The notes below the pieces were generated by a model. That model ran no database searches. It was not told the origin of the DNA and saw nothing but the letters and a program-made list of their open reading frames with translations. Source: a bacterium (lineage in GTDB: Bacteria > Patescibacteriota > Patescibacteriia > JACPHY01). Taken from it: 64,000 nucleotides of DNA. Positions 2,565 to 63,539 of the stretch are shown piece by piece. The stretch covers positions 4,050 through 68,049 of the forward strand of contig JAUSKG010000034.1 in assembly GCA_030647005.1 (NCBI GenBank). Direction: 5' to 3'. The first letter of the stretch is position 1. Each line of letters begins with the position of its first letter. Position numbers and translations under genes: made by a program.

Positions 2565-4095
2565 ATGCCTTGCGCTTCGCGAGGAGTGCGTGGCGATGCT
2601 TGCCGACGAACTCGCTCGCTTCTTCGCTGTTCCAGGGGTGCTGCGCCTGTCCGACCGCCGCGAGCATACTCATCGTGAGGTGCTCGAGGAGTGCGGCTTT
2701 TCCCGTGGGCAAGATACCGTAGCACGTGTTGAGAAGGATGAGGTGATCCTCGCTATTGCCGATCACCGCGAAGACGTGCGGTGCTGCGCGCGTGGAGCCA
2801 AAGAACCACGTCTGGTCGCCGACGTTCAGGGGAATGATGCGGCTGCCTTGCTTACGGTCACGACTGCCACCTCCACCACTTCCGCCGCCTCCACTTCCAC
2901 CGCCTCCACTTCCGCCATCACCACTTCCACCGCCACCACTTCCGCCATTACCACCCAAACCCTCGGGATTGCGGATAGGTGGCGAGGCGGTTGCCTTCCC
3001 CCATGCATGCTCGAACGCGGCGCGGATGTCGTGCGTGATGACCTCCGCCACCTTCGATCCGGCCATGATATCGGCGTCCTCGAGGAGTGCCTGCGCCTGC
3101 GGGGCAACCTCGGCCTGGAGGAGGTCTGCGATCTTCCTCCATGCCTTCCCCCTGAGGAACATATCGTGCAGCCCGCTGCGCGACGTGTCCTGCTGTTCCA
3201 GGAGTCCCGGGACGAAGATGTCGCCTCGGAGATCCGGACGGCCGAGCGGGTATGGCAGGTGCCGACCGAGTGCCGGACAGAATCCCACACGGAACCCCGT
3301 CTCTGCATCCACGAGCCAGATGCCGCTCCGCTCGCTCGCGGGGTCCGGAACGCGCTCGAGGTAGGCCTCGATGGCGGTATCCGGCACGGCGATCACGAGT
3401 GCGGACACGAGCGGTGGCGGGACGAACTTCTTCCCGCCGATGAGGAGCGTGCCGCAGCGATCACGCTTGCGTGGAAGCCAGGGTGCAACCGCATCTCGGA
3501 GCTCGTTGTGCGACCCGAAGACCGGGTTGTCCACGACGATGCAGGAGAATCGCCCGCGATGGCCCGCGTACGCACCGAGCTCCAACGCGTCGGGCTCGAA
3601 TGATTGCGGGAGCGCACCCGGCGGTGTCGTTGCCGCCGTTGGCGTGATGCGCCAGCACGTCACACGACCGGACACCGACGTGCGCGTGAAGACGGTGAAC
3701 CCCGTGTCGTAGCTATACCGATCGCGGCGCAGCGCGAACGCTGCGGTACGACCGATCCCCTTGTCCGATGCGCCACGGTATCTCCCGCGCTTTCCTTCCC
3801 GACGCTTCGCCCCGAGCGAGCAGAACCGATCGAAATCGGCCTGCGTGAAGCCGGTGCCGGAGTCAAAGCAGACGAGCGCGGACTCTCCCGTGAACGCGTG
3901 CCGCTTCTCGATGCTGAGCTCAACGTGGATCCGTGATGGCTCCCAGAGCTCCTGGGTCCCGCCGCCCATGCACGCCACCATCGCATTCCGAATGATCTCC
4001 ACGACGCACTTGCCCGGATCGGTGTACAGCTCTGCGCCGAGCGGTCCAACGAGCAGCTCGGCGGTTGCTTGAAAGAGAACCGGTGATACCTTCAT
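2563..4095 (-). CDS. GHKL-superfamily (HATPase_c / Bergerat-fold) ATPase with Gly/Ser-rich linker and C-terminal domain
   Basis: 510 aa with an SD GGTGAGGAG upstream. N-terminal Bergerat motifs are present: N-box EIIRNAMVAC, G1 FDSGTGF, G2 GASDKGIGRTAAFAL. A (GGSGG)n low-complexity linker sits near residue 385-415, followed by a ~90-aa C-terminal domain. Confidence 0.7.
   Translation of the reverse strand: MKVSPVLFQATAELLVGPLGAELYTDPGKCVVEIIRNAMVACMGGGTQELWEPSRIHVELSIEKRHAFTGESALVCFDSGTGFTQADFDRFCSLGAKRREGKRGRYRGASDKGIGRTAAFALRRDRYSYDTGFTVFTRTSVSGRVTCWRITPTAATTPPGALPQSFEPDALELGAYAGHRGRFSCIVVDNPVFGSHNELRDAVAPWLPRKRDRCGTLLIGGKKFVPPPLVSALVIAVPDTAIEAYLERVPDPASERSGIWLVDAETGFRVGFCPALGRHLPYPLGRPDLRGDIFVPGLLEQQDTSRSGLHDMFLRGKAWRKIADLLQAEVAPQAQALLEDADIMAGSKVAEVITHDIRAAFEHAWGKATASPPIRNPEGLGGNGGSGGGGSGDGGSGGGGSGGGGSGGGGSRDRKQGSRIIPLNVGDQTWFFGSTRAAPHVFAVIGNSEDHLILLNTCYGILPTGKAALLEHLTMSMLAAVGQAQHPWNSEEASEFVGKHRHALLAKRKA
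2866..2955 (-). repeat. 15-bp tandem repeat (about 6 units) encoding the (GGSGG)n linker of the GHKL ATPase
   Basis: Units CCACTTCC(G/A)CC(G/A)(C/T)C(T/A) are repeated head-to-tail on the plus strand. They translate on the minus strand as GGNGGSGGGGSGDGGSGGGGSGGGGSGGGGS. Confidence 0.8.
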
Positions 4096-6547: not shown

Positions 6548-7131
6548 CCTTGGTGCTCCCGCACCAGCTTCGGAGGGAACATGCGAAACCACCCATCCCC
6601 ATCCCACCCCCTCAAAATGACGTGGAGGACCCACTCACAACAAGTGCTGTGAGATTTCTAGCATAGCGACTCGCAGAGGGACCGTCCAGTACGGAAAAAT
6701 GGCGCAAAAAGAAAGAGGCGCTTGGATGTGCGCCGCCGTTTTGATAGCGGTAATGATTTCAGCACAATCCTGCGCCTCTTGACGATCATTGGCCTTGGCT
6801 GTGTCCGCGGATCGCTGGCTCGGATGAACCCAGCCGAGGCACCGATCCGCGGAAACGAGCACGTACCAATATCGTTCTTGCACTTTGCTGAGAAGTGCGC
6901 CGCTCAACCATTCGCTGGGTGGCCACAAGTTGAAACGAGGGACTACACCCGTTGTGCTTTTGGTTTACCAACACTTGGCCCTATTCAGCATTCGGGCCGG
7001 TATGAGGAACAGTAGAGCGGAAGGAACTCCCGATGAGCGAGCACCGAACATGACATACCGACTGAAGCAATTCGCCTCACTCGGACTCTCCCAGGGAGAT
7101 CCCTACATGTGTTTCCCCTTCGTACTTATCC

Positions 7132-15215: not shown

Positions 15216-15695
15216 GCGTATAGAATTTTTTTCCCGTCCGTCATTGCGAGTCCGCGAAGTGACGCTCCTGCGTCATCTCGAGTGAGGTTTGACGAGCGAG
15301 AGACCCCACACTATCCATGAACCGTGTGAGATCCTTCGGTCGCAGATGCCCTCAGGACGACATCGGAACGTCGTCTCACCAGCAACAATCCCTTGTATCG
15401 TGTGAGATTGCTTCGCGGACTCGCAATGACGACAGAGGAGGTGGGAAGGTATGAGGTGAGCTGGTACAGCGAGCCGAGAGCAATCGGAATAGTACTGTCG
15501 CAAGCACGTCATTCGTCGAGCGAGTGGTAGATGGAGGCCGCGATGACGGAGGAGACCGCTGTGACAAGATGCCACGCCGCAATTTCGATGAGCATAGGTG
15601 ATGTCTCCATCGTAGTGCGGAGGCATGCAAGCGCACCAGTGGATAGCGGAGAAAAAAAGAGTGCACCCCCAACTTACGTTGGGGGTGCGTGGTAC

Positions 15696-17832: not shown

Positions 17833-19443
17833 ATGGTCGCTGTCGAAACACCAAGTGATTCGTGGAAACGCGCACTCGGGCACCCCGTTCTCCAGGGGTG
17901 CGTTCTCATGGTGCTCGCGGTGATCATTGCGATCATCGTGCAGGTGCCCGGCCACTTCCCGGACCCCGACTCCTACTACCACGCCGGCATGGCGGAGCTC
18001 GCGGCGGAGGGGGTGTTCGAGCAGACGTTCCCGTGGCTCACGCTCACAAACTTCCCCGAGACCTTCGCAGACCTCCACTTCGTCTACCACCTCGTCCTCG
18101 TTCCATTCGTGAACATCTTTGGTACCGCAACGGGCCTCCGCATCGCAACGATCGCCGCGGTCGGGCTCCTCGCGATCACGTTCTCCGCACTCCTCCGCAC
18201 GCTCAACGTCCGCGGCGCGTTCTGGCTCACCGCGCTCCTCCTCGGGAGCTCGTCATTCATGCTCCGCGCGAACCTCGCAAAGTCCCAGGGGTTCGCGTTC
18301 ACTATTCTCTTCCTCGGCATGACCGCGGCAGCGAAGCGGTCGCACATCGGCATCTTCCTCGCCACGCTGTTCGCGACGTGGACCTCAAGCCACTGGCCTG
18401 TGCTCACCGTTGCGGTGTGCGCTTTTGCGCTCGCGCAGTGCGTCGTGGAGATCGTTGACGGCACCGCGCCCACGCTACGCATCGGCAAGCCGTTCCTCCG
18501 CATGTGCGGAATGATCCTCACCGCGCTCTGCGGCAATGCGGTCGCACTCATCGTCAACCCGTACTTTCCTGCGAACCTCACGATGGCGCGCGAGCAAATC
18601 CTGAACATCGCAGTCATCGGCGGCATCCCCGAGGCCATTCCCGGTGGCGAATGGGTGCCACTCTCCGTGATGGAGCTCGCCTCCGCGATCGGATTCCTCA
18701 TTCCGCTCCTCCTCATCGCCACGTACGGACTCATGGTGCTCATCATGCGGACGGTGCGTGGGACTGATGCGAACGGGCGACAGACGACCGCGTACGCGAT
18801 CGCGACCGCACTCCTCGCCGCGACGTTCTTCGCACTGACGCTCGGCGCGCGCCGCCACATCGAGTTCCTCACACCGCTCCTCATCGCCTTCATCGCCGTG
18901 GGTATCCAGCCGGCGGTCCAGTGGGCGTGGCCGCCGCGTGTCGCGATTGCCTGGCGGAGGCCGGGTGAGCTCCGACGCCCGCTCGCGACGATCATGCTCC
19001 TCGTCGCCATTGCGGGATTCACCGTGGGCGCCATCCGTGGCATCCGCGCGCAGCGCGAGCGCTTTGCCACCGGATACTCCGTGGAAACGCTCGCGGGCGC
19101 GAGCGCGTGGATTGCGGAGCACGCACCGGAAAATGCCATCATCTTCCACGCGGACTGGGATGATTTTCCCCTCCTCTTCTTCCATGACCGACGCCACCGC
19201 TACCTCGTGGGGCTCGACCCACGCTTCGCGTACTACCACAACCGCGAACGCTACCGCGAGCTCCTCGCCATTCGTGCGGGTGATATCCCCGATGGCCGCA
19301 TCGCGCAGCGCATCATCGCGGTGACGGATGCGTCCTACGCAATCGTCACCGCGGACCAACCCGAACTCACCGCGCTCCTCGATGCCGACCTCGACGCGAC
19401 GCAGGTCTACGGCGACGACGAAGCGCGTGTGTACGCATTGTAA
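17833..19443 (+). CDS. polytopic membrane protein, putative GT-C-type glycosyltransferase (PMT/ArnT-like)
   Basis: 536 aa with >10 TM helices. An early periplasmic-loop acidic motif PDPDSYYHAGMA resembles the DE/DxxY motif of the GT39/GT83 families. It sits in a glycosyltransferase cluster. Confidence 0.45.
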   Translation: MVAVETPSDSWKRALGHPVLQGCVLMVLAVIIAIIVQVPGHFPDPDSYYHAGMAELAAEGVFEQTFPWLTLTNFPETFADLHFVYHLVLVPFVNIFGTATGLRIATIAAVGLLAITFSALLRTLNVRGAFWLTALLLGSSSFMLRANLAKSQGFAFTILFLGMTAAAKRSHIGIFLATLFATWTSSHWPVLTVAVCAFALAQCVVEIVDGTAPTLRIGKPFLRMCGMILTALCGNAVALIVNPYFPANLTMAREQILNIAVIGGIPEAIPGGEWVPLSVMELASAIGFLIPLLLIATYGLMVLIMRTVRGTDANGRQTTAYAIATALLAATFFALTLGARRHIEFLTPLLIAFIAVGIQPAVQWAWPPRVAIAWRRPGELRRPLATIMLLVAIAGFTVGAIRGIRAQRERFATGYSVETLAGASAWIAEHAPENAIIFHADWDDFPLLFFHDRRHRYLVGLDPRFAYYHNRERYRELLAIRAGDIPDGRIAQRIIAVTDASYAIVTADQPELTALLDADLDATQVYGDDEARVYAL

Positions 19444-19457
19444 TCACGCACGCTCGG

Positions 19458-20312
19458 ATGCTCACCGTTATCCTCCCAGTACGGAACGAGGAGCCCATCA
19501 TCGCGGCAACCATCGAGCGACTCCTCACGTTCCTCCACGCGACGCTCCACGAGCCGTGGCGCGTTATCGTTGCTGACAATGCCTCGACGGACCGCACGCG
19601 CGATGTCGTGCGGGATGCGATAGTACACGATGGCACGCACCTCGCACTCCTCGAGCTCGATCGCCCGGGCAAGGGCCACGCGGTAATGAGCGCGTGGCGA
19701 AAAGCTGCAAGCGAAACAACAACGGCATGTCATTGCGAGCCGAATCCGAGAGGCGTGGCAATCCCGGTCATATCGGTACAAGGTGAAAGCCGGGTGCACT
19801 GCATGGCCGGGATTGCCACGTCGCGGACTCCTCGCAATGACAAACAAGGGAGTTTTGCAGAGGTCCCTCAAAATATCTTCCTCTTCCTCGATGCCGATCT
19901 CGCCACTGATCTTCGACACATCCCGGAGCTCATCGCCGCGGTGCGCAGTGGCGCGGACATCGCGGCGGCGTCGCGGTACCTCCCGGGATCGCAGACGCAC
20001 CGGAGCACCTTCCGCCACATCATCTCGCGTGCGAACGCGCTCCTCCTCCGGCTCCGGTTTGGACTCCGCATGACCGATGCGCCGTGCGGCGCGAAAGCGG
20101 TGAACGCTCGGGTGGTGCGCGACATCGTCCCGCTCATCCGGGACGACCAGTGGTTCTTTGATACGGAGCTCTGCATCCGTGCGCAGCGCGCCGGTTTCCG
20201 CATCGTTGAGATTCCGATCGCATGGCATGAACCGCGCGAGGGTGTTGCCATCGCGAAAGTCCTCAGGATCATTGTGCGCAACTGCCGGACGATCCTCCGC
20301 TCACCGCTATGA
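19458..20312 (+). CDS. GT2-family glycosyltransferase (polyprenyl-phosphate sugar synthase-like) carrying an in-frame palindromic-element insertion
   Basis: ILPVRNEEPIIAATIERL...IVADNASTDRT...GKGHA...FLFLDADL (DxD motif) is present. About 38 extra residues (TTACHCEPNPRGVAIPVISVQGESRVHCMAGIATSRTPRNDKQ) lie between the GKG and DAD motifs and are encoded by repeat copy 19729..19841. Confidence 0.8.
   Translation: MLTVILPVRNEEPIIAATIERLLTFLHATLHEPWRVIVADNASTDRTRDVVRDAIVHDGTHLALLELDRPGKGHAVMSAWRKAASETTTACHCEPNPRGVAIPVISVQGESRVHCMAGIATSRTPRNDKQGSFAEVPQNIFLFLDADLATDLRHIPELIAAVRSGADIAAASRYLPGSQTHRSTFRHIISRANALLLRLRFGLRMTDAPCGAKAVNARVVRDIVPLIRDDQWFFDTELCIRAQRAGFRIVEIPIAWHEPREGVAIAKVLRIIVRNCRTILRSPL
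19729..19841. repeat. MITE-like palindromic element copy A (GTCATTGCGAG...CTCGCAATGAC), inserted in frame in the GT2 gene
   Basis: Left arm GTCATTGCGAGCCGAATCCGAGAGGCGTGGCAATCCCGGTCAT; core ACAAGGTGAAAGCCGGGTGCACTGC; right arm ATGGCCGGGATTGCCACGTCGCGGACTCCTCGCAATGAC. The host ORF remains open across it. Confidence 0.85.
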
Positions 20313-22036
20313 CCGGCCGCACAATGCCGTTCCCCACCTGGAAAACGCTCGCACGCAGCGAGCGACGATTCGCGCTGCTCGTTGGACTCGCGCTCGTGGT
20401 CATCACCGGCCTGCCGCTCCTCTACGGCTGGAGCAACACGCCTCCGGATGCCACGTTCACCGGCCTCCAGTCCATCAACGTCGGGGACTTCTCGGTCTAC
20501 GCCTCATACATCGAGCAGGTACGCGAGGGACGCCTCCTCTTCGTCAATCGCTTCACGTCAGACCTGCCGCCATTCCCGCGCCTCCACGCGTTCTGGCTGG
20601 GTATGGGACTCATCGCGACGGTGCTCCACCTCCCCGCGATCGTGGCGTTCCATGCGGTACGCCTCGTCCTCATCATCCCGTTCGTCGCATTCCTCGCGGT
20701 GTTCGTCACGACGTTCATCGAGCGCGGCGCTGGCACCTGGAGCGCGTCCACGCTCCGGCGTATCGCACTCCTCGGCATCGCGTTTGCTGCGGGGTTTGGT
20801 GGCATCGTGCACGGACTCACCTCATACGCGACGCATGCACCGCCAGAGGAAGCGGGAGTCCTCATGGACTTGCTCGTCGCGGAGGCATTCCCGTTCACCG
20901 CGATGTACACGTCGCCGCACTTCATCGCATCGCTCTGGCTCCTCCTTGGCATCATCCTTTTGGGGTACCGTTACGCGCTGTCCGGCCACATCCGCGATGC
21001 CGTGCTCGCCGGCATCGCGGCACTCGCGCTCTTTCACATGCAGCCGTACTACGTCGTGACGATCTTCGGTGTACTCGCCGCATGGATCACCATCGAAACA
21101 ATCGTTGCGCGACGCATCCCGAAGCGCCTCGTGGCACTCACGGTGGTCGTACTCCTCATGGGTGCGCCAGCGATTGCGTACCAACTCTGGCTTATCCACG
21201 CAGACCCGATCACCGTGTGGCACCTTCGACAAAACATCCTCCCGATGCCGCGCTGGTGGGTCGTCCTCATCAGCTACGGCGCGCTCATTCCGCTCGCCAC
21301 TGCGGGAATCGTTCTACGTCTGCGCACGATGACACGCACCGATCGGCTCCTCATCGCGTGGCTCGTGGCGAATGTGGTCCTCCTTGTCACGCCGTTCCCA
21401 TGGCAGCGCAAGCTCAGCGAGGGATTTCAGGTTGCGCTCGTGCTCGCGGGTACGCCAGCGCTCGCGGCGATCCTCGCGACGCTGCGCGCGCACCTCCCGC
21501 AGCCCATCGCGCGGTACGGCTGGACGCGGCTCACGGGCGCGATCACCGCGATCGTCGTCTTCGCGCTGTCGCCAATCACCGTCGTTGGCGCGGACCTCCT
21601 CCGGTACGATCCGCGCAATGCACACACCCCCACATTCCTGTATTACTTCTTCTACCCGAATGCCACCATTGACGCAATGCACTGGATCCGCGCGCACGCG
21701 GACGAACGCGACGCGACCGTCGCGGCAAGTATTGATGGGTACTTTGTTCCGCGATACGCCGCGCGGCCCGTTGCGTACGGACACATGCACGAGACGACAA
21801 ACGCCACGGTGAAACGCGCAGCACTTCTGGATATCCTCATGGCGCGGATGTCACCCGCTGATGCACTGCTGCTCCTGCGCAATCTCAACGTCCGCTATTT
21901 TCTCGTCACCGATACCCATCGCGATGTATGGGTGCTCCATCCCACAGATCTCCCGGGGGTGCACCTCGCATACGCGAACGACGGCGCCGAGGTCTACGAG
22001 CTCGCGCCACCATCCACCGAAGAAACACCCCGATAA
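20309..22036 (+). CDS. polytopic membrane protein, hypothetical (possibly GT-C-like glycan transferase)
   Basis: 575 aa with >12 TM helices. Its start overlaps the stop of the GT2 gene (ATGA), suggesting translational coupling. Confidence 0.45.
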   Translation: MTGRTMPFPTWKTLARSERRFALLVGLALVVITGLPLLYGWSNTPPDATFTGLQSINVGDFSVYASYIEQVREGRLLFVNRFTSDLPPFPRLHAFWLGMGLIATVLHLPAIVAFHAVRLVLIIPFVAFLAVFVTTFIERGAGTWSASTLRRIALLGIAFAAGFGGIVHGLTSYATHAPPEEAGVLMDLLVAEAFPFTAMYTSPHFIASLWLLLGIILLGYRYALSGHIRDAVLAGIAALALFHMQPYYVVTIFGVLAAWITIETIVARRIPKRLVALTVVVLLMGAPAIAYQLWLIHADPITVWHLRQNILPMPRWWVVLISYGALIPLATAGIVLRLRTMTRTDRLLIAWLVANVVLLVTPFPWQRKLSEGFQVALVLAGTPALAAILATLRAHLPQPIARYGWTRLTGAITAIVVFALSPITVVGADLLRYDPRNAHTPTFLYYFFYPNATIDAMHWIRAHADERDATVAASIDGYFVPRYAARPVAYGHMHETTNATVKRAALLDILMARMSPADALLLLRNLNVRYFLVTDTHRDVWVLHPTDLPGVHLAYANDGAEVYELAPPSTEETPR

Positions 22037-22039
22037 CGT

Positions 22040-23335
22040 ATGCGCTTCCCATCTCCCATAAGAACAATAACCATCATCGTCCCGAGCTTCAATGAGATAC
22101 GCACCATCGCACGCATCTACGATGCGCTCGTACGCTTGCGCCTCGCGGTGGATAACAACGAGATTGAAAAAAGTATCCTTTTTGTTGACGATGGATCAAC
22201 TGACGGAACACGAGAGTGGATCACGCACACGCTTGCGGATGCCCGTTGTGACGGTTCGATTCGCCTCCTCACGCATCCGACAAACCGCGGCAAGGGTGCC
22301 GCCATCCGCACTGCGCTGGAACATGCACATGGGGACTACATCATCATCCAGGATGCCGATCTCGAATATGATCCGCAGGACATCCAGACACTCGTCACTG
22401 CAGCGCATCTGACTCATGCCCCCGCCATCTACGGGTCTCGCGACAAGGACATCGTGAATGCGTGCTCCAGTAAGACGTTCCTCTGGGGCAATCGCATACT
22501 CACCCTTCTGACAAACCTCCTGTTTCGACAACGTCTCACCGATGTTGAAACGTGCTATAAGCTCATCAATACGCAGCTCTATACATTCCTAGATCTCCGA
22601 GAGCACGGTTTTGGCACCGAAATCGAGGTGACGGCAAAAATCGCGACGCTCGGCATCACCATCCCGGAGGTTTCCATCACCTACACGCCGCGCTCGTACC
22701 ATGAGGGAAAAAAGATTCGTGTGCGGGATGGCGTTCGAGCAGTGCTATTACTCGTGAAGTACAGAGTGTCCGATCTCCATTACGGTCCTTTAGATCTCTG
22801 CATCCGCGCATGGCGGGAACGAGCGCTCTGGCGCGTCTTCGCGCCGCACGCATCCGCAACCGTACTCGATGTCGGTTGCGGACGACAAGCATCGCTCGCA
22901 TGGAAGTTGCGCACACGGGTTTCCACGTACACAGGCGTTGATCCTGATGTCCGTCCTGCACAGTACCGGAATGTCCGCATCCTCCGCACTCCAGCCGAGC
23001 AAATGGTGGCGCAATTGGACGGCGAGACATTTGACACCATCATTGCGCTTGCTGTCCTTGAGCATCTCGATGACCCGGATCATTTCCTACACGAATGCCG
23101 AACACTCCTCAAGAACAACGGATGCCTCATCCTCACCACTCCAACACCGCGAGCGCAACCCATACTCCACCTCCTTGCGTTCCTTCGCCTCATTGATGCC
23201 CATGAGATTGAGGAACATAAAACACTCTTCCATCCCCGCGAGCTCCACGAGATGCTCCGGCGAGCGGGATATTCCTCCGTCCGAGTACGGCCGTTCCTCT
23301 TTGGATACAACTGCTGCTATGTTGCAACGCGCTAA
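22040..23335 (+). CDS. bifunctional GT2 glycosyltransferase / class I SAM-dependent methyltransferase fusion
   Basis: N-terminus IIVPSFNEIRTI...FVDDGSTDGT...IIQDADLEYDP (GT2). C-terminus VLDVGCGRQ...LKNNGCLILTTP (methyltransferase motifs I and post-I). Confidence 0.7.
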   Translation: MRFPSPIRTITIIVPSFNEIRTIARIYDALVRLRLAVDNNEIEKSILFVDDGSTDGTREWITHTLADARCDGSIRLLTHPTNRGKGAAIRTALEHAHGDYIIIQDADLEYDPQDIQTLVTAAHLTHAPAIYGSRDKDIVNACSSKTFLWGNRILTLLTNLLFRQRLTDVETCYKLINTQLYTFLDLREHGFGTEIEVTAKIATLGITIPEVSITYTPRSYHEGKKIRVRDGVRAVLLLVKYRVSDLHYGPLDLCIRAWRERALWRVFAPHASATVLDVGCGRQASLAWKLRTRVSTYTGVDPDVRPAQYRNVRILRTPAEQMVAQLDGETFDTIIALAVLEHLDDPDHFLHECRTLLKNNGCLILTTPTPRAQPILHLLAFLRLIDAHEIEEHKTLFHPRELHEMLRRAGYSSVRVRPFLFGYNCCYVATR

Positions 23336-24653
23336 AGGATTCTTCGCACATCTCTCAACTCGCGCCGACCGGTACCTCCCCGGACTCTTCCGCAGGGGGA
23401 CACCTCCACGCATGTTCGTCGAGATCATCGTGCTCGCGGTCAGCATCCTGTCACTCTTCTTTGTGACGCTCCATACAAACTTCTCCATCACTTCACAACA
23501 ACAGTTCGCGCACCTCGCACAGTCGTTCCTCCAGGGTGTCGCCTATTTTCTCAATCCATTCTTTGACGCACCCGGAGAAACCCTCATTGATACGGTCTTC
23601 ATCCACGGACGGTACTACTGGCCACTGAGCCCACTTCCAGCGATCCTGCTCATGCCGTTTGTCCACGTTGCGAGTGTGTTCCATGGATTCTTCCTCCAGG
23701 GATATCTCCAATTCTTCCTCACACTGGGGATTTTCATGCTCTGCGTTTCCATCGCACGGCACTGGTCATACTCGCATCGAGATGCGCTGTGGCTCGCATT
23801 CGCATTTGTCTTTGCCTCAACGTACCACCTCGTTGCGTTCGTATCACACAGCTGGTACTTCGTTCAGGCCATCGCGGTGTTCTTTACACTCTTCGCAATC
23901 CAGGAATGGCTTGGCAGGAGACGGTGGTGGATGATTGGCATCGCGTGCGCACTCGTTTTTGCAAGTAGAGTGACTGCGGGTGTGGGCGTGCTCTTCTTCG
24001 TGGGCGATATCCTGTTCCAAAGCAGTCGTCTCCCATCCCGAAAACAGTACGTCTCCCTCGCACAGCTTCTCGTACCCATCTTCCTCGCGGGCGTGCTGCT
24101 CCTCGGATACAATGCTGTCCGCTTTGGGACGATATTCGAAAACGGCTACCGCTTAGCCAATGCGAGCACCGCAACCGCCGAGGACCGCTACGAGTTGCTG
24201 CACTACGGCCTCTTCCGTATCGAGAATATTCCGACGAATCTCTACTACTACTTCGTCAGGTCATTGGATCCTGTCACGCTTCCCATTGCAACGAGCTCCA
24301 GAAGAACGTACCACCTCACCGCACCGTACGTCACCGTCGGAGACCCGGGCGTGAGCTTCTTTGTGACGGCACCCATCTTCCTCTACCTGTTCTCAAGGAA
24401 AACGAGACAATCACTTCGCGAGGAGCGCTCGGTGCGCCTGGCGGCGATGACCGTTGTTCCCATCCTCCTGTTACTCCTCCTGTACTACTGGCCGGGATGG
24501 ACGCAGGTCGGACCGCGCTATATGCTTGACCTCCTTCCGTATCTCTTTCTCGTACTCCTTGCATCGTTCCACAACTACCGCCTCCCTGCTTTCGCAAGGA
24601 TCCTCATCATCTGCAGTGCTGCGCTCAACCTCTTTCTCACGATACATTTCTGA
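23319..24653 (+). CDS. polytopic membrane protein, hypothetical
   Basis: Start MLQRAKGFF overlaps the stop of the preceding gene. ~444 aa with many TM helices. The track ORF start at 22869 is an upstream extension inside the previous gene. Confidence 0.45.
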   Translation: MLQRAKGFFAHLSTRADRYLPGLFRRGTPPRMFVEIIVLAVSILSLFFVTLHTNFSITSQQQFAHLAQSFLQGVAYFLNPFFDAPGETLIDTVFIHGRYYWPLSPLPAILLMPFVHVASVFHGFFLQGYLQFFLTLGIFMLCVSIARHWSYSHRDALWLAFAFVFASTYHLVAFVSHSWYFVQAIAVFFTLFAIQEWLGRRRWWMIGIACALVFASRVTAGVGVLFFVGDILFQSSRLPSRKQYVSLAQLLVPIFLAGVLLLGYNAVRFGTIFENGYRLANASTATAEDRYELLHYGLFRIENIPTNLYYYFVRSLDPVTLPIATSSRRTYHLTAPYVTVGDPGVSFFVTAPIFLYLFSRKTRQSLREERSVRLAAMTVVPILLLLLLYYWPGWTQVGPRYMLDLLPYLFLVLLASFHNYRLPAFARILIICSAALNLFLTIHF

Positions 24654-24675: not shown

Positions 24676-26457
24676 CTAAGGTGCCGCCTCTACCTCGCGC
24701 AGCGGCCCGATGATGCGGTGCGTGATGCGCTCTGCGGGCGTGAAGAGTTCGAGCGGGGGTGCGGGGCCGTCCGCGCCGCGCGCGAGGAGGAACACGCCAT
24801 CGCGCTCCGCAGCAACGCGGAACCCGCCATCCTCGAGAAGACGCGCCAACCGTGCTGGCGCGTCCGCGGCGTAGGGCTTGGTCCAGGAAACGTGGAGGAG
24901 CGCGGTGTACTCCTCCGCCATGTCCGCAATGACTGCGAGGACGTGCGTCGTTTGGGACGGAAGCACATACGGCGCGAACGCGTACTGCTGCTGGCCGAGT
25001 GCAGCGTTCGGGAGGTACGTCGTGCCGCGACGCGCGGCGACGCGCGTGATGACGGACGCGCTCGCGGAGATGACCGCGTTGTCGGGTACTGCGGCGAGGA
25101 GCACATCCGTGGCCTGCGCCTGCACGCGCTGCGTATCCGTTGCACCGAAGACCGCGGCGCGTGCGATGCCTGGGAATGGGCCGAGAAGAAACGCGACGGC
25201 GATATATGCGCTCACGCCAAGCATCATCGCAGCGCGGTGTGGGAGCGGGAACCAGTGTCCGAAGAATGTAGCGACGCGGCCTCCATACCACCCCCCTGTA
25301 TCCCCCCTCTGGAAGAGGGGGGAGCGGAGTGTGGCGAGCACGAGCGCGGGGACAAAGAGGAGCCCGTAGTGCATCTGCACCATGAGGTTGGAGCCGCCGC
25401 TCGCCGTGAGGAGCACCTGGGCCGCCGGCGGCAACGCGAGGAGAAACCACGCGGGCGCGAGGAACGGAAGGAACAAAAACGGAAGAAGAAGCCCGAGTAC
25501 GAAATCGAGATTCGAGAGACGCAGGAGGTGCTGCGCAACGAGCACGGGATGTCCAATGGTGTTCACGATCACCTCACCGAACGACTCGCCGAGCCATCCG
25601 TAGTACACGAGGAACGGGTACGCGCCCGCCGGACTATGTACTGCCGCGATGCGCGTTGCGATGGAGAACCACGCGATGCCCAGGAGGAGAGGTAAGAGCA
25701 TCCAGTACCACTTCTTGCTGTCATTGCGAGGAGTCCGCGACGCGGCAATCCCGGTCATAGGGGTTACGCAACGGTCACGCGCATTGGCCGAGATTGCCAC
25801 GCCTCGCGGACTTGGCTCGCAATGACAGAGGCGTGAGGAGAAGGAGGAAAATCGTAAAACAATCGCCACCACCCCAAACATCATCGCGATGAGCGCGATG
25901 TCCTCCCGTACGAACAGCGCGAGTATGAGAAACAGGATGAACGGCAAGAAGCGACGTTGCAGGAAAAAGTACCCCGCACTCAAAAGGAGAACGGGCGCGA
26001 ACGCGAGCGCGTGGAACTCGAAGAGTGCGGCGTTCCAAAACAGCGGATTCCCGAGCCAGAGCGCGGTGAGGAGCAGTGACCATCGTGACCGACGGAGCAA
26101 CGCGTACACTGGCACCGCAGTGAGTCCGAGCACGAGTGCCTGCACGATGACGAGGAGCCGCGCATCCGACCACACCCGGAAGATCGGTATGAGCAAGAGT
26201 AGCACGGGCTCCACGTGATCACCGAGGTAGCTGTGCTGCTGGATGTCCGACCACCACCCATTGCCGGCCGCGAGGTTCGCGAGCACGTTCGTGTAGATCG
26301 CGAGGTCGAGCCCGTTGTAGAGCAGGTACCGATACTTGAAGAAACCCACCGCGCTCACCGCGAGCGTGAAGAGCGCGATCATGCCCGCGAGCGCGAGGCG
26401 GCGCAACGTGATGGTCATCCATGGAGCATCTGCATCATGTTGATGAGGTTGTGTCAT
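24676..26457 (-). CDS. DUF2079-like polytopic membrane protein with in-frame palindromic-element insertion
   Basis: 593 aa, N-terminal half multi-TM. The internal segment CHCEPSPRGVAISANARDRCVTPMTGIAASRTPRNDSKK is encoded by repeat copy 25720..25826. Confidence 0.5.
   Translation of the reverse strand: MTQPHQHDADAPWMTITLRRLALAGMIALFTLAVSAVGFFKYRYLLYNGLDLAIYTNVLANLAAGNGWWSDIQQHSYLGDHVEPVLLLLIPIFRVWSDARLLVIVQALVLGLTAVPVYALLRRSRWSLLLTALWLGNPLFWNAALFEFHALAFAPVLLLSAGYFFLQRRFLPFILFLILALFVREDIALIAMMFGVVAIVLRFSSFSSRLCHCEPSPRGVAISANARDRCVTPMTGIAASRTPRNDSKKWYWMLLPLLLGIAWFSIATRIAAVHSPAGAYPFLVYYGWLGESFGEVIVNTIGHPVLVAQHLLRLSNLDFVLGLLLPFLFLPFLAPAWFLLALPPAAQVLLTASGGSNLMVQMHYGLLFVPALVLATLRSPLFQRGDTGGWYGGRVATFFGHWFPLPHRAAMMLGVSAYIAVAFLLGPFPGIARAAVFGATDTQRVQAQATDVLLAAVPDNAVISASASVITRVAARRGTTYLPNAALGQQQYAFAPYVLPSQTTHVLAVIADMAEEYTALLHVSWTKPYAADAPARLARLLEDGGFRVAAERDGVFLLARGADGPAPPLELFTPAERITHRIIGPLREVEAAP
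25720..25826. repeat. MITE-like palindromic element copy B, inserted in frame in the DUF2079-like gene
   Basis: GTCATTGCGAGGAGTCCGCGACGCGGCAATCCCGGTCAT ... ATTGGCCGAGATTGCCACGCCTCGCGGACTTGGCTCGCAATGAC. Confidence 0.85.
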
Positions 26458-26508: not shown

Positions 26509-26625
26509 GTCATTGCGAGGAACGAGTCAGCGAGAGACGCGGCAATCCTGGTCGTGCAGGGTACCCGACTTTCACCTTGTACTGGTATAACCGGGATTGC
26601 CGCGTCGCCGACTCCTCGCAATGAC
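26509..26625. repeat. MITE-like palindromic element copy C (intergenic, full length with core)
   Basis: Termini GTCATTGCGAGG...CTCGCAATGAC. The core GTACAAGGTGAAAGTCGGGTACCCTGCAC is present in reverse orientation. Confidence 0.85.
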
Positions 26626-30734: not shown

Positions 30735-30757
30735 ACAGCTCGCACCTGGTATCGGTA

Positions 30758-30804
30758 TGACCGGGATTGCCGCGTCGCTCGCGGACTCGCTCCTCGCAAT
30801 GACA
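30758..30804. repeat. solo right arm of the MITE-like element (copy D)
   Basis: ATGACCGGGATTGCCGCGTCGCTCGCGGACTCGCTCCTCGCAATGAC. Confidence 0.7.
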
Positions 30805-30821
30805 GGGGGGGGGTGATCAAC

Positions 30822-32920: not shown

Positions 32921-33036
32921 GTCATTGCGAGGAGTCCGCGACGTGGCAATCCCGGTCATCGGCGCACCAATCCGACAACAACAGTATACGCATCCTTCCG
33001 GTGATGACCGGGATTGCTTCGTGGACTCGCAATGAC
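32921..33036. repeat. MITE-like palindromic element copy E (variant core)
   Basis: GTCATTGCGAGGAGTCCGCGACGTGGCAATCCCGGTCAT-CGGCGCACCAATCCGACAACAACAG...-ATGACCGGGATTGCTTCGTGGACTCGCAATGAC. Its core resembles copy G. Confidence 0.85.
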
Positions 33037-39790: not shown

Positions 39791-40069
39791 GGCATTGCGA
39801 GGGAGTCCACGATTCTCTGTCATTGCGAGGAGTCCGCGACGTGGCAATTCCGGTCATACCAGCACAAAGGTGAAAGCCGGGTGCACTGCATGACCGGGAT
39901 TGCTTCGATCGGGGACTCCTCGCAATGACAGCGATGGAGTGCCATGTTCCTTTCATTGCGAGGAACGAGTCCGCGAGTGACGCGGCAATCCCGGCCATGC
40001 CGTGTACAAGGTGAAAGCCGGGTGCACTGCATGACCGGGATTTCCACGTCGCGGACTCCTCGCAATGAC
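39791..40069. repeat. tandem cluster of MITE-like palindromic elements: partial arm (39791..39817) plus two full copies (39819..39929, 39953..40069)
   Basis: Both full copies have GTCATTGCGAGG...CTCGCAATGAC termini and the core AAGGTGAAAGCCGGGTGCACTGC. They are separated by 23 nt of unique sequence. Confidence 0.85.
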
Positions 40070-40545: not shown

Positions 40546-40682
40546 GCGGGCGGGTATAAAACCCGCCCCTACGCCGTTACTTCGGAGGGGAGGAGTTCAT
40601 TCCATCGTCGCGTTATGCGTCTCCGTAGGGGAGGGGTTTACCCCCTCCCATCCGGGCTCCCCCTGAAGCTGGCGCGGGAGCG
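40546..40682 (-). repeat. composite repeat: GCGGGTATAAAACCCGC hairpin + GGGAGGGGGTAAACCCCTCCC hairpin + 26-nt repeat, reverse orientation; overlaps the 3' end of the giant ORF
   Basis: The same ordered pair of hairpins recurs at 60682..60784. The 26-nt element lies at 40661..40682. Confidence 0.5.
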
Positions 40683-43600
40683 TCAAAGAACGCGCGATGT
40701 CGGCCCATGCGGATGGGATGATGGCGGTGATGCCGACTGATTCCGGTGCGTCTGCGACCGCTACGACATCCGTCTCGCGGGCATCGGAGGTTTTGGGGGA
40801 TGACGGCTCCACGATGATCTGCACGGTGTCCGCCGCTGATGCGCCACCGTTGTCCACGACTTCGAGGATGACGGACGTCGTTCCAATCGGCGCGGCGTAC
40901 TCCAGCTGCGCGCCGGAGCCGATGTACTCCCGACCGACGCGCCAGCGCAAGCGCGCGATGGACCCGTCTGCATCACGCGAGCGCGATCCATCGAGGGTGA
41001 CGGTGACCACTCCGTCGCCATCGTCATCGCGCACGGTTTGATCTTCGCCCGCGTGTGCAACCGGCATCGTATTGAGCCCAACCATGCTGCGCCAGGCACT
41101 CAGCACCGCGCGGTTGTTCAGCTCATCGAGCTCCGCGATGGCATCGTTCGGGTCAACGGTGAGCTCGAGGATCGCCGCGCCTTCCGGTGGGGTGGTCGCG
41201 TAGACGCCGAGCGGCCGCGGGAGGCCGACGGTGTCCGGAATCGCGGACGTCATCTGGAACCGCCAGTCCGGTTCGAGGGCATCCTGCGTGCGCAGGTAGT
41301 GCTGCCCAAGCGGCAGCCCGCTCCCACCCCGCCACTGGAGCCGCCAGGTGAACGCGGGACTGATCACACCACCGCGATTCGTGAGGATGATGCGGAGCGC
41401 GCCGCTCTCGTCCACGCTGAGGTCGAGGATGGCAAGATCCACCGGACGATCCGGCTCGAACACCGCGAGCGTCGTGCGGGCCTGTGCCTCCCGCCCGTCG
41501 GCATCGCGTACCTGCACGGTGGCGGCAATGAGCCCGCCGGCATCGAACCGACGCTGGATGGTCGGCGAAGCACCAACGACGCCGTCTGCAAAACGCCAGG
41601 AGACCGTGTACGGCTTGCGACCGCCGGTGATCGCCGCGTGGTAGGTTGCGGAGAGCGGCGCGGGACCGGATGCCGGATCAACCGTCGCCGTCACCGCGAG
41701 CGGCGCGACGCGCACCACCGGCGTGCGCTCCGCGACTGGCGCGATATCCGGTGTGATGACTCCTGCCTCCTTCGGGCTGCTCGGTTCCTCAGGCACATCC
41801 GTCACCAGCTCGGGCTCGTCAACGATGGTCGGCTCGCGTGGAGGCACTGCGGGTTCCGGTATGCGACCCTCGGCCTCCTCGGGAATGGTGATCGTGACGT
41901 CATTGTCGGACTCGTTCACCTCAACAATTGCGTTTGGCCCATCCACGGTGATGAGGAGCTCCACCGCCCCGCTCGGCACGGTGCGCAGGAATTGCGGGAA
42001 GGTCTGCCCCGCGCCGCTCCCACGGTGCGGGAAGAACGTCGCGCCGAGGTCACCTGCGAAGGTAATCGTCTGTGGATCTCCGGGCGCGAACGCTTGCGCG
42101 GGCGCATCGTGCCAGAACCGCACCGCACCTACGGACAGCCCAAGCGTGTCGGTCCAGGTGAACCAGTACGACAACGGTACGCCGATGTCACCGATTGCCG
42201 CGCCATCGTTCACGACCGTGACGGTGACGGCGCGGGCGTCGTCCGCATACGTCGCGGACACGGCGCGAAGGTTGGGGAGCGGCGGCTGCTCCGCCTGCAC
42301 ACTCGCCACCGGAACCGGGAGCGTCGCGACGTTGTTGAGCTCATGCTGCTCGGCAATGCGACCATCACCGTCCGCGACGATGCGCAGGTGTGTGGCGCCC
42401 GCTGGCGGGTGCGCGAGGAATACCGCGAGATTCTCCGTCCGATGTCGCGTGAAGATGAGGAGGAACCGCTCGCGGTAGGTGACGGAGAGTAGGCCGGTCC
42501 CGAGCGACTTCGCATCGCCTGCGGCGAGCGCGTGGAGGGTGAGTGTACGCACCGCACCAAGAGGAACCACACGGTCATCCACCCACGCGAGCTGGAGCGT
42601 GGACGACGGTGCCTCCGCGTCCCCGTCATTGCGCACGACGAACGCGAGCGTACCATCTTCCTCCCACGCTGCGGAGGACAGCAGGAGGTCCGGGAGTGCG
42701 GCCGCACCTACCTGCGTCGCGCCAGTGAGCGCACCGAGTATCGTGCCGACGGTATCCCGCGCGCGCGATGCGATGCGCGTCGCCGTCTCCGCGGGCAGAC
42801 GCGCAATCGTGAGGGTCACCTGTTTGCAGTTGTTCGACTCATCGGACTCCGCGATCTCCTTATTGACATCTATGCACACCTCGAACGCGTGGTTGCCGGA
42901 CGTGGCCTCCCAAGCGTCGGCCCACGTGATGGTTCCTTCCGCCGCCTTCGCGAGCGTCGGGAGTGCCTCCGTGGACGGGAAGGCATCCGGAACACCGTCA
43001 TTGTTCAAATCCACAACCAACCACGCAGTCGTCGCCGCAACATCCGCCGATCCGCTATTCCGGATCGTCGCCGTAAACGACACCGCCTGCCCGGTCATCG
43101 GCACGGCAGGTGACGCAACGACACGCACCATCACGAGGTCCGGCCCGATGGTGACCGGTTCTGGTTCGGGTTCCGGCTCGGGTTCTGGTTCCGGTTCCGG
43201 CTCTGGTGCCACGACCGGGCGCGTGAGCACGCGGGCATTATTCTGCTCGTTGGCTTCTGTCACCGCGTCCTTCGGATCCACCACGATGCGCAACTGCATC
43301 GCGTGCACGGGAGGCGCGGCGATGAAGTTTGCGTAGTATCCGGTCCAACCAATGGTCCCCAGGTCTTTCGCCGCGCCGCGGGAGAGCCCCATGAAGTCCC
43401 GCGTCTCTTCCGCAAGAACGGTGCCATCACGATCGAGCCATGCAATCGTCGCACTCGTACCCACCGTGCGCACGGCACCGTCATTACGCACGACGAGTCG
43501 TAGTCCCGCATCCGTCAGTGCGGCATCGGCAATGGCGAGATCGGCGACCCCGAGCGGCCATCGGTCCGACGTAAGACGATTGTTGTCTTCGCGCTCCTCT

Positions 43601-46600
43601 GCGATCCGGTTGTCCGGGTCCACGATGAGCTCGATACCTGCGGCACCTGTTGGCGGATCGAGCACGTACTCACCAAACGGCCGCGGTGTCCCCGTCCGAT
43701 CACCGACGTCGCTCATCATGGCGTAGAAGCTCCCCGCGCGCTGCGCATCGTGCGGCTGGCGGTACGGTGGTACAGCAATGCGCGCACCGGAGGCGTCCAA
43801 CCACGCGAGCTCCCACGTGTACGCCGGCGCGGGAACTGTTCCCTCCACTTGCATGTTCACGATGAGTCGCTCGTCGTCGGTCACGCTGATGAGATTCGCC
43901 TTGAGATCCGACAGCGGCGCACCGGCAAAGGGAACATCGAAGGTATTGTTCGATTCGTCCGCTTCCGTCAGCTTGCCCGCCGGATCAACCGTAAACCGAA
44001 TCTGCGTTGCACCCGCGGGCGGGTCCTTGAAGAACTGCACCTCGGGGCCGTAGCCGGAGTCCTTGTACGCGAAGAGGAGCTGGTAGCGGTGGAGAAACTG
44101 CTTCTGGAGACCGTCACCGCGACCGATGTACGGCGCGCCAAGGAGCGTACCGGAAGCATCGGCCCACTGCATAGACCAGAAGAACACGGGTGATGCAATC
44201 TCGCCGACGTTGCGGACATCGAGTCCATAGATATCACCGTCGGCATTCGTGAAGAGCTTGGGGACACCGGTGATCGTGAGATCCGGCAGCGCGCTCCGGT
44301 CCGGACGATCGAAGGTCACGCGGTTGTTCTCCTCGTTCTTCTCCGCGATTGCATGATCCGGATCCATCGTCACGCGGAGCGTGCGCGCCGCATCCGGCGG
44401 CGATGCGAGCAGCTCGCCCGCGCGACCCACACCGCGTTCGATGATGATCGAACGGCCACTGCGCGAGGAGAGCTGCGGCCCGTCCACGCGGACCGACGCG
44501 CCCACGACCGTGCCTTCCGCATCGAGCCACGCGAACTCCCACACGAATGCCTGGACGTCCTGCTTCCCCTTGTTCCAGAGCGTCGCCGAGAAGCTGTCCA
44601 TGCCCAGCGCAGGTTCGCCGAACTCGAGATCGGGCTGCTGCACGATGACGAGTGCCGCGCGCGCGGTGTTATTCTGCTCATCGTGCTCGCGGAGCACATG
44701 CTCAGGATCAGCGGTGATCTCCAGCCCGCTCGCGTTCGCTGGCGGATCGGCGAGGAGGCCCGCCAAGGGTGTCTGCTCCTGTGCGAGACCGGTCGCGGTC
44801 CACAGAGGTGACGTGAGCGTGGTGGTTGCTGCGGTGAACGTCCGCGATGCACCAGATGCGAGCGCGGCGGTGTCCAACCAGTACCGACCGTACGAACCGG
44901 CAAAGTGCACTGCGATGCGGATGCGTCCCTCACGATCTCCGGCGGGCGCGTCGCCGACATTCGTCACCGTGAACGTCGCGCCGTCGCGCGTGACGGCAAC
45001 GTCGCGCACAACGAGGTCTGCGAGTTTCCGTCGCGCAGCAACGTCCGCGCTGTTGTTCTCCTCCGAGGACTCCGCGATGGCATTGCCCGCATCAATCGTC
45101 ACGCGGAGTGCCGCAGCCCCCGTCGGCGACAACGCGAGCGAGCGCTCATCGTACCCGTACCCGTCGTAGCGCAAGGTGCGAACTTCGGTGGCCCCGGGGC
45201 TGAGGAAGCCCGTCCCGCGGGTGACGGTCGGCGTGCCGAGTACCCCGCCGGCGGCATCCACCCACTGGAGCGTGAGCGTGGCGGGCGTGGCGCGCGCTGC
45301 ACCACGATTTGCGATGGTGATACGGAACGTGTCGCCGCTCGCCTCGATGCCGGTTGCTGCGGCAACGAGCTGGAGGTCCGGCAGCGGGAGCGGCAGGGTG
45401 ACGATGTTGTGCTCCTCATCCCGCTCGGGAATTGCATCCGTCACATCTGCCGTGATGCGGAGTGCGGTTGCGGTGCTCGGTCGCTGCTGGAGGAACTGCG
45501 CGAGCGATTGGCTCGATGGTTGGGGACGATGATTGGCGTAGGCGAAGGAGAGCATCGTATCGGCCGCGCTCATGCGCGCGGATGTTCCAGGTGCAATGGG
45601 GAGCATCGTGAGGACGCGCTCGCCGCCGGGAATGGGAGTGCCGCTGCCGTCCAGCCAGAGGAGGCCGACGGAGACATCACCGCCCGTGATGCCCGGCCCA
45701 TCGTTCACCACCGCGAACGTGAGCGATGCATCCACGAGGTGCGCGTCCGCAATGCGGAGATCGGCGCGCGGACGTTCGAGGAGCACCGCGTTGTTCCCGT
45801 CGTTCGTCTCGCGAATCACATGGTCCGGATCGAGCGTGAGGTGGAGGTGCGTCGCATCGCGCGGTGGCATCCGGAGCACCTCGGTGAGGGCGATCGTCGA
45901 GACCTGCGTGCGACCCCACCACCCGCCCCGGAACTCGTACGACACCTGCACATCACGCGCATGGAGTGTGATGCGTCCACCCGCGACGATCGGCGCGAGG
46001 TCCACGAAGTAGCGCTGGCCCGTCGCCTGCCGATCTGCCGTGCGCCACACGATGTCCGCGCGCACGCGCGCGCCATCCGTTGCGCCTGCGCCGTCATTCT
46101 GCACGGTGAAGACGAGATCGTCCGCGGTGAGCGATGCACCCACGATGGTGAGGTCTGCGAGTGCGGATGGTTGCGGCGGGGGCGGCGGGAGCGCGGGTGC
46201 GTCGAGCACCGCGATGTTGTTCAACTCATCGGACTCGTCGAGCGTCCCTGCGCTGTCGAGTGCGACCCGAAGGAATGCCGCGCCATCCGGTCGGTCGGTG
46301 AGGAACGCGGCGAGCGACTGTGTCTCCATGCTCCGGAGCAGACCGCTCCGGTAGGATACCGTGGACGTTGCCGAAGAGATGCCGGTCGTCGCACCGGCAT
46401 CGAGTGCGGGGTACGCGATGGAGCGTGGGGAACCGAGCGGTTGGCGTTCCCCGTCCAACCACTGGAATGCGACGTGGAATGCACTCCCGATGCGCGTCGT
46501 GCCGATGTTGGAGACCCGTGCCGCAAACGCACCGGCATCACCGCCGACAAAACCCGCTTCCGTGATGGCGAGGTCGGGGAGCGGGAGGTGCACGACCGCC

Positions 46601-48618: not shown

Positions 48619-48637
48619 AGCGTATTTTTCATCTCCA

Positions 48638-62549: not shown

Positions 62550-63119
62550 TCACGGGGTGGTCACCGGAGGTGGCGGCATCGCGTCGCTGTGGTGGAACCG
62601 CCGATCAACATCCGCCATCTCCAGGATGAACGTGCGAACCGCGTTGGGGTCGGGGACATCTTCGAGTAAGAACCGCTCGGTTGCAGCGGCGGTCTGCACG
62701 TGGACGTTGCCGTAGTTGAAGAACGTGGGGAACACGCCGCGCACGTCTGTCGTGACGTCCTGCACGCGCCAGAGGTCGAGCTCGGCAACGGTCCGCGCGA
62801 AGAGCCCGTGCTGCTCCATGGAGACGAGCCGATCGTTCGTGATGACCCAGAGGTCCAGCTCGTAGTCAATGAACATCGTGAAGAAGACGAGCCACATCGA
62901 GAGCTCGAACGCGCCAAAACCCAGCACGAGCGCGGGGTACGCCACGGGGTGCGCGAGGATTGCCGGAACGTTCACGCGGAGAAAGACGAACAGCCCGAAG
63001 GGGATCGCGGCGAGCGCGGCCCAGACGATCACGCGCTTGAGGAGCAAGAGCCAGTGCCGCCGGAGCTCGAGGACGCGCGTCTCGTATGCCTTCTGATGGA
63101 TGAGTGTTGAGATGTTCAT
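62550..63119 (-). CDS. membrane protein, possibly bacterial PH (bPH_2/DUF304-like) domain
   Basis: Start MNISTLIHQKAYETRVLELRRHWLLLLKRVIVWAALAAIPFGLFVFL: two TM helices followed by a soluble domain. The track ORF extends into repeat copy G. Its start overlaps the upstream stop (ATGA). Confidence 0.4.
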   Translation of the reverse strand: MNISTLIHQKAYETRVLELRRHWLLLLKRVIVWAALAAIPFGLFVFLRVNVPAILAHPVAYPALVLGFGAFELSMWLVFFTMFIDYELDLWVITNDRLVSMEQHGLFARTVAELDLWRVQDVTTDVRGVFPTFFNYGNVHVQTAAATERFLLEDVPDPNAVRTFILEMADVDRRFHHSDAMPPPPVTTP

Positions 63120-63373: not shown

Positions 63374-63386
63374 AAAACAATCCTGT

Positions 63387-63520: not shown

Positions 63521-63539
63521 AGAAGCAAGAGGATTCGCT

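Follow-up and report, generated by a model that had tools for sequence, protein, structure and literature searches.

The DNA examined here is a 64,000-nucleotide stretch (hereafter, the window) from a bacterium of the Patescibacteriota, part of the candidate phyla radiation (CPR). Its minus strand carries an open reading frame (ORF; 24676-26457) for a polytopic membrane protein of 593 amino acids that matches the DUF2079 family along almost the whole profile (PF09852; profile positions 4-458 of 459; E = 6.6e-49; score of 167.7 bits, with the cutoff at 28.2). The ORF is intact despite a 107-nt palindromic repeat element at 25720-25826, whose minus strand encodes residues 211-246 of the protein (36 residues) in what is called here the HCE...RND frame. 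The original prediction, that a palindromic element is inserted in frame in a polytopic membrane protein, is therefore upheld by the read-through and the PF09852 match, and the peptide that it quoted, CHCEPSPRGVAISANARDRCVTPMTGIAASRTPRNDSKK, was found exactly in the ORF translation; its tryptic-type segments include GVAISANAR and CVTPMTGIAASR.

The element is a nested palindrome bounded by GTCATTGCGAG...CTCGCAATGAC. These 11-nt terminal inverted repeats are perfectly complementary, and the pairing lengthens to 13 nt, still 100% complementary, as CTGTCATTGCGAG/CTCGCAATGACAG (25718-25828): the left arm, (CT)GTCATTGCGAG, occupies 25718-25730 and the right arm, CTCGCAATGAC(AG), occupies 25816-25828. 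The TGTC head of the left arm corresponds to the CGTC/TGTC tag of published palindromic repeats, and the right arm supplies a TGA that closes one reading frame per strand. The inner inverted repeat is formed by GGCAATCCCGGTCA (25744-25757) and GAGATTGCC (25790-25798), which takes in a pairing of GGCAATCC (25744-25751) with GATTGCC (25792-25798). Its left half can be followed as GGCAATCCCGGTCAT (25744-25758), bearing the family motif GCAATC; the GATTGCC partner, recognized by inverted-repeat pairing, is degenerate in this copy. A second TGA, in the reverse complement ATGACCGGG of the inner repeat, closes another frame of the minus strand. In the sense of the mRNA (minus strand), 25718-25828 folds into a hairpin with a minimum free energy of -69.1 kcal/mol, compared with -37.4 +/- 3.5 for shuffled sequences (z = -9.0). 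This hairpin is formed by the whole element, the stem of an individual arm being just ATTGC/GCAAT (5 bp) around an irregular interior of 12-30 nt. In-gene and intergenic copies are equally structured, and the 25720-25826 copy, at -0.60 kcal/mol per nt, falls inside the intergenic range.

The host protein was aligned with eleven orthologues (12 sequences); its nearest relatives, at 41-48% identity, are proteins of Candidatus Uhrbacteria, a CPR lineage. On one side of the insert are an invariant R-E-D motif and its helix, on the other the next helix (W..P.LLG..WF). Between a few and about 70 residues of each orthologue cannot be aligned here, and none of the orthologues has the insert. The 48 columns that are invariant across the alignment are all kept in the host protein. 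The AlphaFold model (mean predicted local distance difference test score [pLDDT] 66.7, from a shallow alignment) shows residues 212-245 as coil with pLDDT <50 between helices 187-211 and 246-274, and deletion of the insert in silico leaves the Pfam score essentially unchanged (167.7 bits with it, 167.9 without). The check on loop position thus came out as anticipated, with the insert in a low-confidence coil between two helices that is hypervariable in orthologues, and a tolerated peptide, one of the two readings first offered, is supported by the unchanged score, the predicted coil, and the absence of the insert from the orthologues. The inserted loop has many Arg and Lys residues (7 K+R versus 3 D+E), which, by the positive-inside rule, suggests that it may be cytoplasmic. 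A fold search with the AlphaFold model yielded nothing beyond weak matches to GT-C proteins (E about 0.009 for ALG12 and STT3, 0.2 for ArnT; TM-scores of 0.3-0.4), and a GT-C-like fold of the DUF2079 protein may be taken from the model as a lead only.

An insert of this kind could have been recruited as a functional DUF2079 loop, for example, one with a cytoplasmic interaction or regulatory role, or the hairpin could serve as a translational pause for membrane insertion. The ORF is intact, the hairpin is undecayed, the charge of the peptide fits a cytoplasmic loop, and palindrome-derived segments recur in the loops of orthologues. An orthologue (P0006) on an Uhrbacteria-like contig, L121, carries a 127-nt copy (3345-3471) with perfect termini in a different loop, and the adjacent 850-amino-acid glycosyltransferase family 2 (GT2) gene holds a 100-nt copy (6956-7055); both are read in the SLR...RND frame, unlike the window copies. 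Recruitment is nevertheless highly improbable in our judgment: no orthologue has the insert at this site, the segment is predicted to be disordered and adds nothing to the match with the family profile, an unrelated GT2 domain of the window carries the same peptide, and an undecayed hairpin fits a recent insertion equally well. Unrelated in-frame palindromes were also seen in variable loops of other DUF2079 orthologues (L266, 840-950; L121, 4196-4245; L267, 916-957), and repeats seem to have landed in DUF2079 loops time and again.

The segment might also go untranslated, if the gene were a recent pseudogene or a split gene or if the element were removed from the transcript. An in-frame ATG inside the element (ATGACC, read MTGIA) could restart the C-terminal half. 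We give this explanation very little credence. All 12 Pfam-supported in-gene copies that we collected, in a screen that favored read-through cases, are stop-free with their downstream domains in frame; excision would not demand this, so the observation counts against it. The DUF2079 protein gives a full-length Pfam match and keeps every invariant column. At the gathering score, Rfam matches in the window were tRNAs only, and a relaxed Rfam search with the element returned a chance microRNA as its best match (E = 1.1) and no intron or ribozyme. Eight element-encoded peptides in several frames had zero matches in NCBIfam at E up to 10, including to any model for Rickettsia palindromic element (RPE) domains, and a literature search by element sequence gave unrelated primer matches only.

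A sister copy of 113 nt (19729-19841) lies in frame in a GT2 gene of the window (19458-20312, plus strand; PF00535). It encodes CHCEPNPRGVAIPV...GIATSRTPRND, and its deletion in silico produces a contiguous PF00535 match over profile positions 1-165 of 168 instead of 1-80. The kinship of this peptide with the DUF2079 insert had been noticed from the start, and the two genes do read the element in identical polarity (18-nt-linker arm first) and in the same HCE...RND frame. The agreement had been taken to point either to selection for a translatable frame or to a tolerated peptide. The AATGAC of the right terminus, however, leaves four open frames at most, and the second TGA, from the ATGACCGGG motif, closes one more in this subfamily. 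The DUF2079 copy is stop-free in two of six frames, just one of them among the three in gene orientation; the GT2 copy is stop-free in three of six, and a 191-nt intergenic copy of the window in none. If open frames are taken as equally likely, the chance that both hosts use HCE>RND is about 1/2 x 1/3 = 1/6. A check of which of the six element frames are stop-free had been proposed: both in-gene copies have open frames, and their use of the same one does not show selection for translatability.

The same question was asked of 157 copies. They have on average 2.31 open frames of 6, compared with 1.39 +/- 0.07 in mononucleotide shuffles, and this excess was considered as a sign of frame selection. 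It was dropped after a control comparing closed and open frames showed no difference: interior stops number 0.63 per copy in the frame that the terminal TGA closes anyway and 0.63 and 0.62 in the openable frames. The excess over shuffles is thus attributable to composition and stem structure, not to frame-specific selection.

Copies verified inside genes elsewhere do not keep to one frame either. Viral-contig and GC-rich loci yielded many further read-through ORF candidates, which this set excludes, since at 61-70% GC long ORFs often arise spuriously. The VIA>RND frame is read in a histidine kinase (L081), in UvrB and TruB (L106), in UvrC (L155), and in a phage portal protein (L192); SLR>RND is read in an ABC ATPase (L077) and in the DUF2079 and GT2 genes of L121; HCE>RND recurs in an Eco57I methylase (L119); and VIA>LAM is found in a Wzy_C protein (L064). 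All three left-end frames are therefore in use, and a single constrained frame, for which copies in random frames had been named as the counterevidence, finds no support in the comparison. At the right end, 11 of the 12 copies finish in ...RND, on a codon boundary, and one in ...LAM, with both frames open about equally often. This trend may reflect a preference for a hydrophilic peptide. We considered it as evidence for selection at the peptide level and kept it merely as a trend because the copies are not independent, the sample is small, and the published table of in-gene CGTC-1 dimers contains both ...ND and ...MT endings (Di Nocera et al., 2013; PMC3733652).

Selection on the family for one frame that stays translatable, allowing copies to persist within genes, would account for the shared polarity and frame in the window, the surplus of open frames, and the ...RND endings. 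We hold it to be very unlikely, given the one-in-six chance of the match, the equal interior stops, the four closed frames of the DUF2079 copy and six of the 191-nt copy, the other frames in use at other loci, the mixed endings of the published dimers, and the scarcity of copies in ORFs. Only two of the nine copies or part-copies in the window are inside ORFs, compared with ORF coverage of ~91% (P about 2e-6), a signature of purifying selection that spares only harmless insertions. The frame observed in the DUF2079 gene, and its match to the GT2 insert, can be read as the product of a stop-codon filter, one of three frames being stop-free.

Several of the in-gene copies are worth describing in their own right. 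Those in UvrB and TruB lie at 782-889 and 3182-3313 of L106, and that in UvrC at 10121-10204 of L155; at L102 (1744-1852), a gene for aspartyl-tRNA synthetase (AspRS) ends seven codons into a copy. UvrB, TruB, UvrC, and AspRS are gene classes of the intragenic CGTC/GTAG repeats listed in 2013, and the UvrC of L155 also bears a canonical VIPAKAGI...AGMT repeat that splits its GIY-YIG domain. The in-frame copy at L192 (3905-4006) is in a gene for an SPP1-type phage portal protein.

In the window, the terminal 11-mer occurs 20 times with at most one mismatch, compared with 2.2 +/- 1.3 times in shuffled sequence, and none of 100 shuffles reached 20. Besides the two in-gene copies, the 191-nt copy (15240-15430) lies beside two tRNA genes, and a 117-nt intergenic copy (26509-26625) lies in what is presumably the promoter or 5' leader of the DUF2079 gene, just 51 nt upstream of its start codon. 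The terminal-repeat scan also located an intergenic right-half fragment (30740-30803), a 116-nt intergenic copy between an SBP gene and an NTP_transferase gene (32921-33036), and two tandem intergenic copies (39819-39929 and 39952-40069; together 39819-40069). The fragment is followed directly by an A and a run of nine Gs (30740-30813). The tandem copies are 22 nt apart, with a solo left-end fragment, GGCATTGCGAG, ahead of them at 39791-39801; a central segment of theirs recurs in the GT2 copy and, inverted, in the copy at 26509. A 134-nt copy (63387-63520) reaches into a bPH_2 gene (62550-63419, minus strand) solely at the 5' end as annotated and is probably intergenic. Three inserted peptides had been expected in the window; the third finds no support, since this last copy meets the bPH_2 gene only at its 5' end and the ORF at 63287-63748, the one that would run through the copy, has no family support.

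The DUF2079 gene lies within an envelope-glycosylation gene cluster, whose other genes span 17833-24653. These are a GT2 gene, a GT2-methyltransferase fusion (22040-23335), and several large polytopic ORFs lacking a Pfam match (17833-19443, 20309-22036, and 22869-24653). Elsewhere in the window, 40597-48648 (minus strand) is a single ORF of 2,683 amino acids.

Copies of the element share a constant architecture: (Y)GTCATTGCGAG, a variable linker that is often a small hairpin, (G/C)GWRGCAATC, a variable center, GATTGCYWCG, a linker, and CTCGCAATGAC(R). Each of the two inverted arms thus starts with YGTC-ATTGCGAG and finishes with GCAATC, and together they make one long hairpin. The element is about 85-135 nt long, its 11-nt termini are identical across phyla, and the architecture holds even in genomes of 30-37% GC. 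The position preceding the left terminus is a pyrimidine in 143 of 151 copies (C in 84, T in 59), followed by GTC, and the position following the right terminus is a purine in 144 of 151. In the inner stem, the positions just inside GCAATC/GATTGC covary (0.86 and 0.70 paired, versus 0.48 and 0.42 with partners permuted). The element has no target-site duplication: direct repeats in the flanks, at lengths of 1 to 8 nt, were at or below chance.

The family is spread over very many phyla. A pattern scan of one genome per species yielded at least 120 loci (L001-L120), a metagenome scan at least another 120 (L122-L241), and a viral collection 44 stretches in predicted viral contigs (L268-L311). Among the matches listed, complete copies were found in Bradyrhizobium and other Alphaproteobacteria, Chloroflexota, Bacteroidota, Legionellales, three Helicobacter species, a Rickettsia endosymbiont, Atribacterota, Brocadiia, Clostridia, and several CPR lineages.

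Known palindromic repeats resemble this family to different degrees. RPEs were reportedly described by Ogata and colleagues in 2000 as in-frame insertions in otherwise intact Rickettsia genes. Both are short selfish palindromes that sit in frame, add a loop-like peptide, and often occupy repair or RNA-modification genes; both have terminal GTCATT...AATGAC and peptides ending in ...ND. The stem is ATTGCGAG/GCAATC here and ATTCCCGC or ATTCCGTGG in RPEs. The present element also differs in its CPR host, in encoding peptides with no NCBIfam RPE match, and in forming its hairpin across the whole element and not within each arm.

The CGTC-tagged palindromic repeats, which include TGTC (or CCTC) variants, have stems that start with AT, a CCA tail, a stem of 8-9 bp, and a loop of 4-5 nt, and mostly occur as head-to-head dimers whose spacers measure 20-100 bp; most lie between genes, some in frame in uvrA, uvrB, uvrC, truB, and tRNA synthetase genes, and they "apparently lack a dedicated transposase" (PMC3733652). 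In that classification, RPE-6 of Rickettsia is CGTC-1 and RPE-4 is CGTC-4. Our family has the YGTC tag (TGTC in the 25720-25826 copy) facing outward, the AT stem start, and a CC tail after the second stem half; its copies are head-to-head dimers with 20-100 bp spacers, mostly intergenic and sometimes in frame. Its arms, with a 5-bp base, lack the stem of 8-9 bp and loop of 4-5 nt. In addition, ATTGCGAG is missing from the text and the intragenic-repeat table of the 2013 report, and the spread seen here goes well past the five phyla given there.

A further parallel comes from small GIY-YIG nuclease genes (ssnA), which are flanked by CGTC-headed hairpin repeats (NTS) across phyla (Chenal et al., 2025; PMC11893778). 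The 94-amino-acid SsnA nuclease cuts single-stranded DNA beside the hairpin, and the NTS-ssnA-NTS arrangement has been likened to an insertion sequence; NTS are seldom in genes (2%) (PMC11893778). In our family, ORFs of ~95 amino acids with a GIY-YIG domain (PF01541; E from 1e-13 to 2e-17) were found exactly between GAAGCAATC and GATTGCTTC in copies that have the usual outer termini, so that the nuclease is nested in the loop of the palindrome (L133, 1812-2181; L143, 1670-2088; L162, 1725-2110; L221, 401-882). One terminus was found at four more loci. A protein-first sample, begun from a nuclease with about 8,000 close homologues and covering three independent genomic contexts, repeated the nesting in two of the three: L247 (Aerophobetes, about 970-1350) and L255 (Thermodesulfobacteriota, about 955-1380). 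A GIY-YIG nuclease is the sole gene found between the termini, at six loci, and its Tyr-11-Tyr-47-Glu spacing is that of Y6, Y17, and E64 in the published SsnA.

Three of these contexts have further features. The unit at L247 occupies a very short operon gap between S-methyl_trans and Pterin_bind genes (methionine-synthase modules), and that at L255 a similarly very short gap separating an ABC ATPase gene from its permease gene. At L242 (about 800-960), four tandem right arms (GGATTGCCACGCTACGCTCGCAATGAC, ~42-nt period) lie directly upstream of a GIY-YIG gene lacking its own left arm.

The Ssn units and our family thus share a single-domain GIY-YIG gene of ~95 amino acids, inverted CGTC-headed hairpin repeats on both sides, the same catalytic spacing, and hundreds of gene-less copies. 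They differ in that the arms here fail the published motif and the gene occupies the loop of a single nested palindrome, which has an additional outer stem of 11 bp. Because a nuclease lies within the same termini at related loci, the short copies look like miniature derivatives.

[quoted passage not shown] MITEs such as Correia/NEMIS, ERIC, and Nezha are small, have terminal inverted repeats, and occasionally lie in frame in genes, but the target-site duplication and the related DDE insertion sequence are missing here. The classical MITE reading was dropped on the negative target-site duplication test. REPINs are inverted doublets that form a long hairpin, with no target duplication, many non-autonomous copies, and a proposed single-copy mobilizer, and the doublet architecture of our element resembles theirs. 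The head is YGTC in our family instead of GTAG, however, and REPINs are described as lineage specific and vertically inherited, whereas the termini here cross phyla and occur in viral contigs. No RAYT-like ORF turned up when 1.6 Mb of loci were screened crudely for HUH/Y motifs, but this is weak evidence; fewer than one was expected by chance. With a GIY-YIG nuclease as the sole gene between the termini, there is only a slim chance that a MITE or a REPIN, and not an Ssn-associated repeat, lies in the DUF2079 gene.

We consider it likely that the 25720-25826 element is a selfish palindromic repeat of a widespread family, in a copy without a gene, retained as a tolerated passenger loop after purifying selection. 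A copy, mobilized by an Ssn-like nuclease that would be encoded elsewhere in the genome, would have inserted itself, in a CPR bacterium resembling Candidatus Uhrbacteria, into the part of the DUF2079 gene that codes for a hypervariable loop between two transmembrane helices. In-gene insertions that shift the frame or bring in a stop would be lost by purifying selection, and this one would have kept the frame in its single open phase and so persisted as a disordered passenger loop, its -69 kcal/mol mRNA hairpin presumably being merely tolerated.

Several observations weigh against this account. The single arms of the window fold no better than shuffles (z from -0.4 to -0.5). A profile search of the 64-kb window found no Ssn-like gene, and the published degenerate motif, HGTCWYN(0-2)YYVSBRHN(0-5)WNVSBRGN(0-2)RNCYNB, had 0 matches in the window and in representative arms, although it matched a canonical NTS control. 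We know of no demonstration to date of transposition by Ssn nucleases. The verified in-gene sample is small (12 copies from 9 genomes or contigs), and the lengths of in-gene copies span all three modulo-3 classes. The 107 nt are counted between the termini of the element, and the exact insertion boundaries and net inserted length may differ. Finally, the insert is presumed to be translated and neutral, and translation is deduced from the open frame.

A broader proposal, which we put forward tentatively and with less than even confidence, is that the GTCATTGCGAG-type nested palindrome represents a distinct cross-phylum class of GIY-YIG (Ssn-like) mobile element outside the published Ssn-related motif. 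Its autonomous form would be ~370-480 nt long, with the nuclease in the loop, and ~110-nt gene-less derivatives would have spread from CPR bacteria to Bradyrhizobium, Helicobacter, and phages, building loops in DUF2079, GT2, UvrB/UvrC, and portal proteins. If true, this would provide a concrete mobilizer for the CGTC-type repeats, described in 2013 as having no dedicated transposase, and a new type of bacterial transposable element that leaves no target duplication.

Palindromic repeats inserted in frame in genes are familiar from the Rickettsia RPEs and the intragenic CGTC/GTAG repeats; what is new is the host lineage and the host protein. The process operates in streamlined CPR genomes, and variable loops of a GT-C-like membrane protein have been struck independently in different lineages. 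The frame shared by different hosts follows from the element's own stop codons and purifying selection and so should not be read as adaptation. Identical termini around a small GIY-YIG gene in different phyla may matter more than the insertion itself: since they enclose the gene, the mobility proposed for Ssn/hairpin-repeat units becomes directly testable on a new and very widespread substrate.

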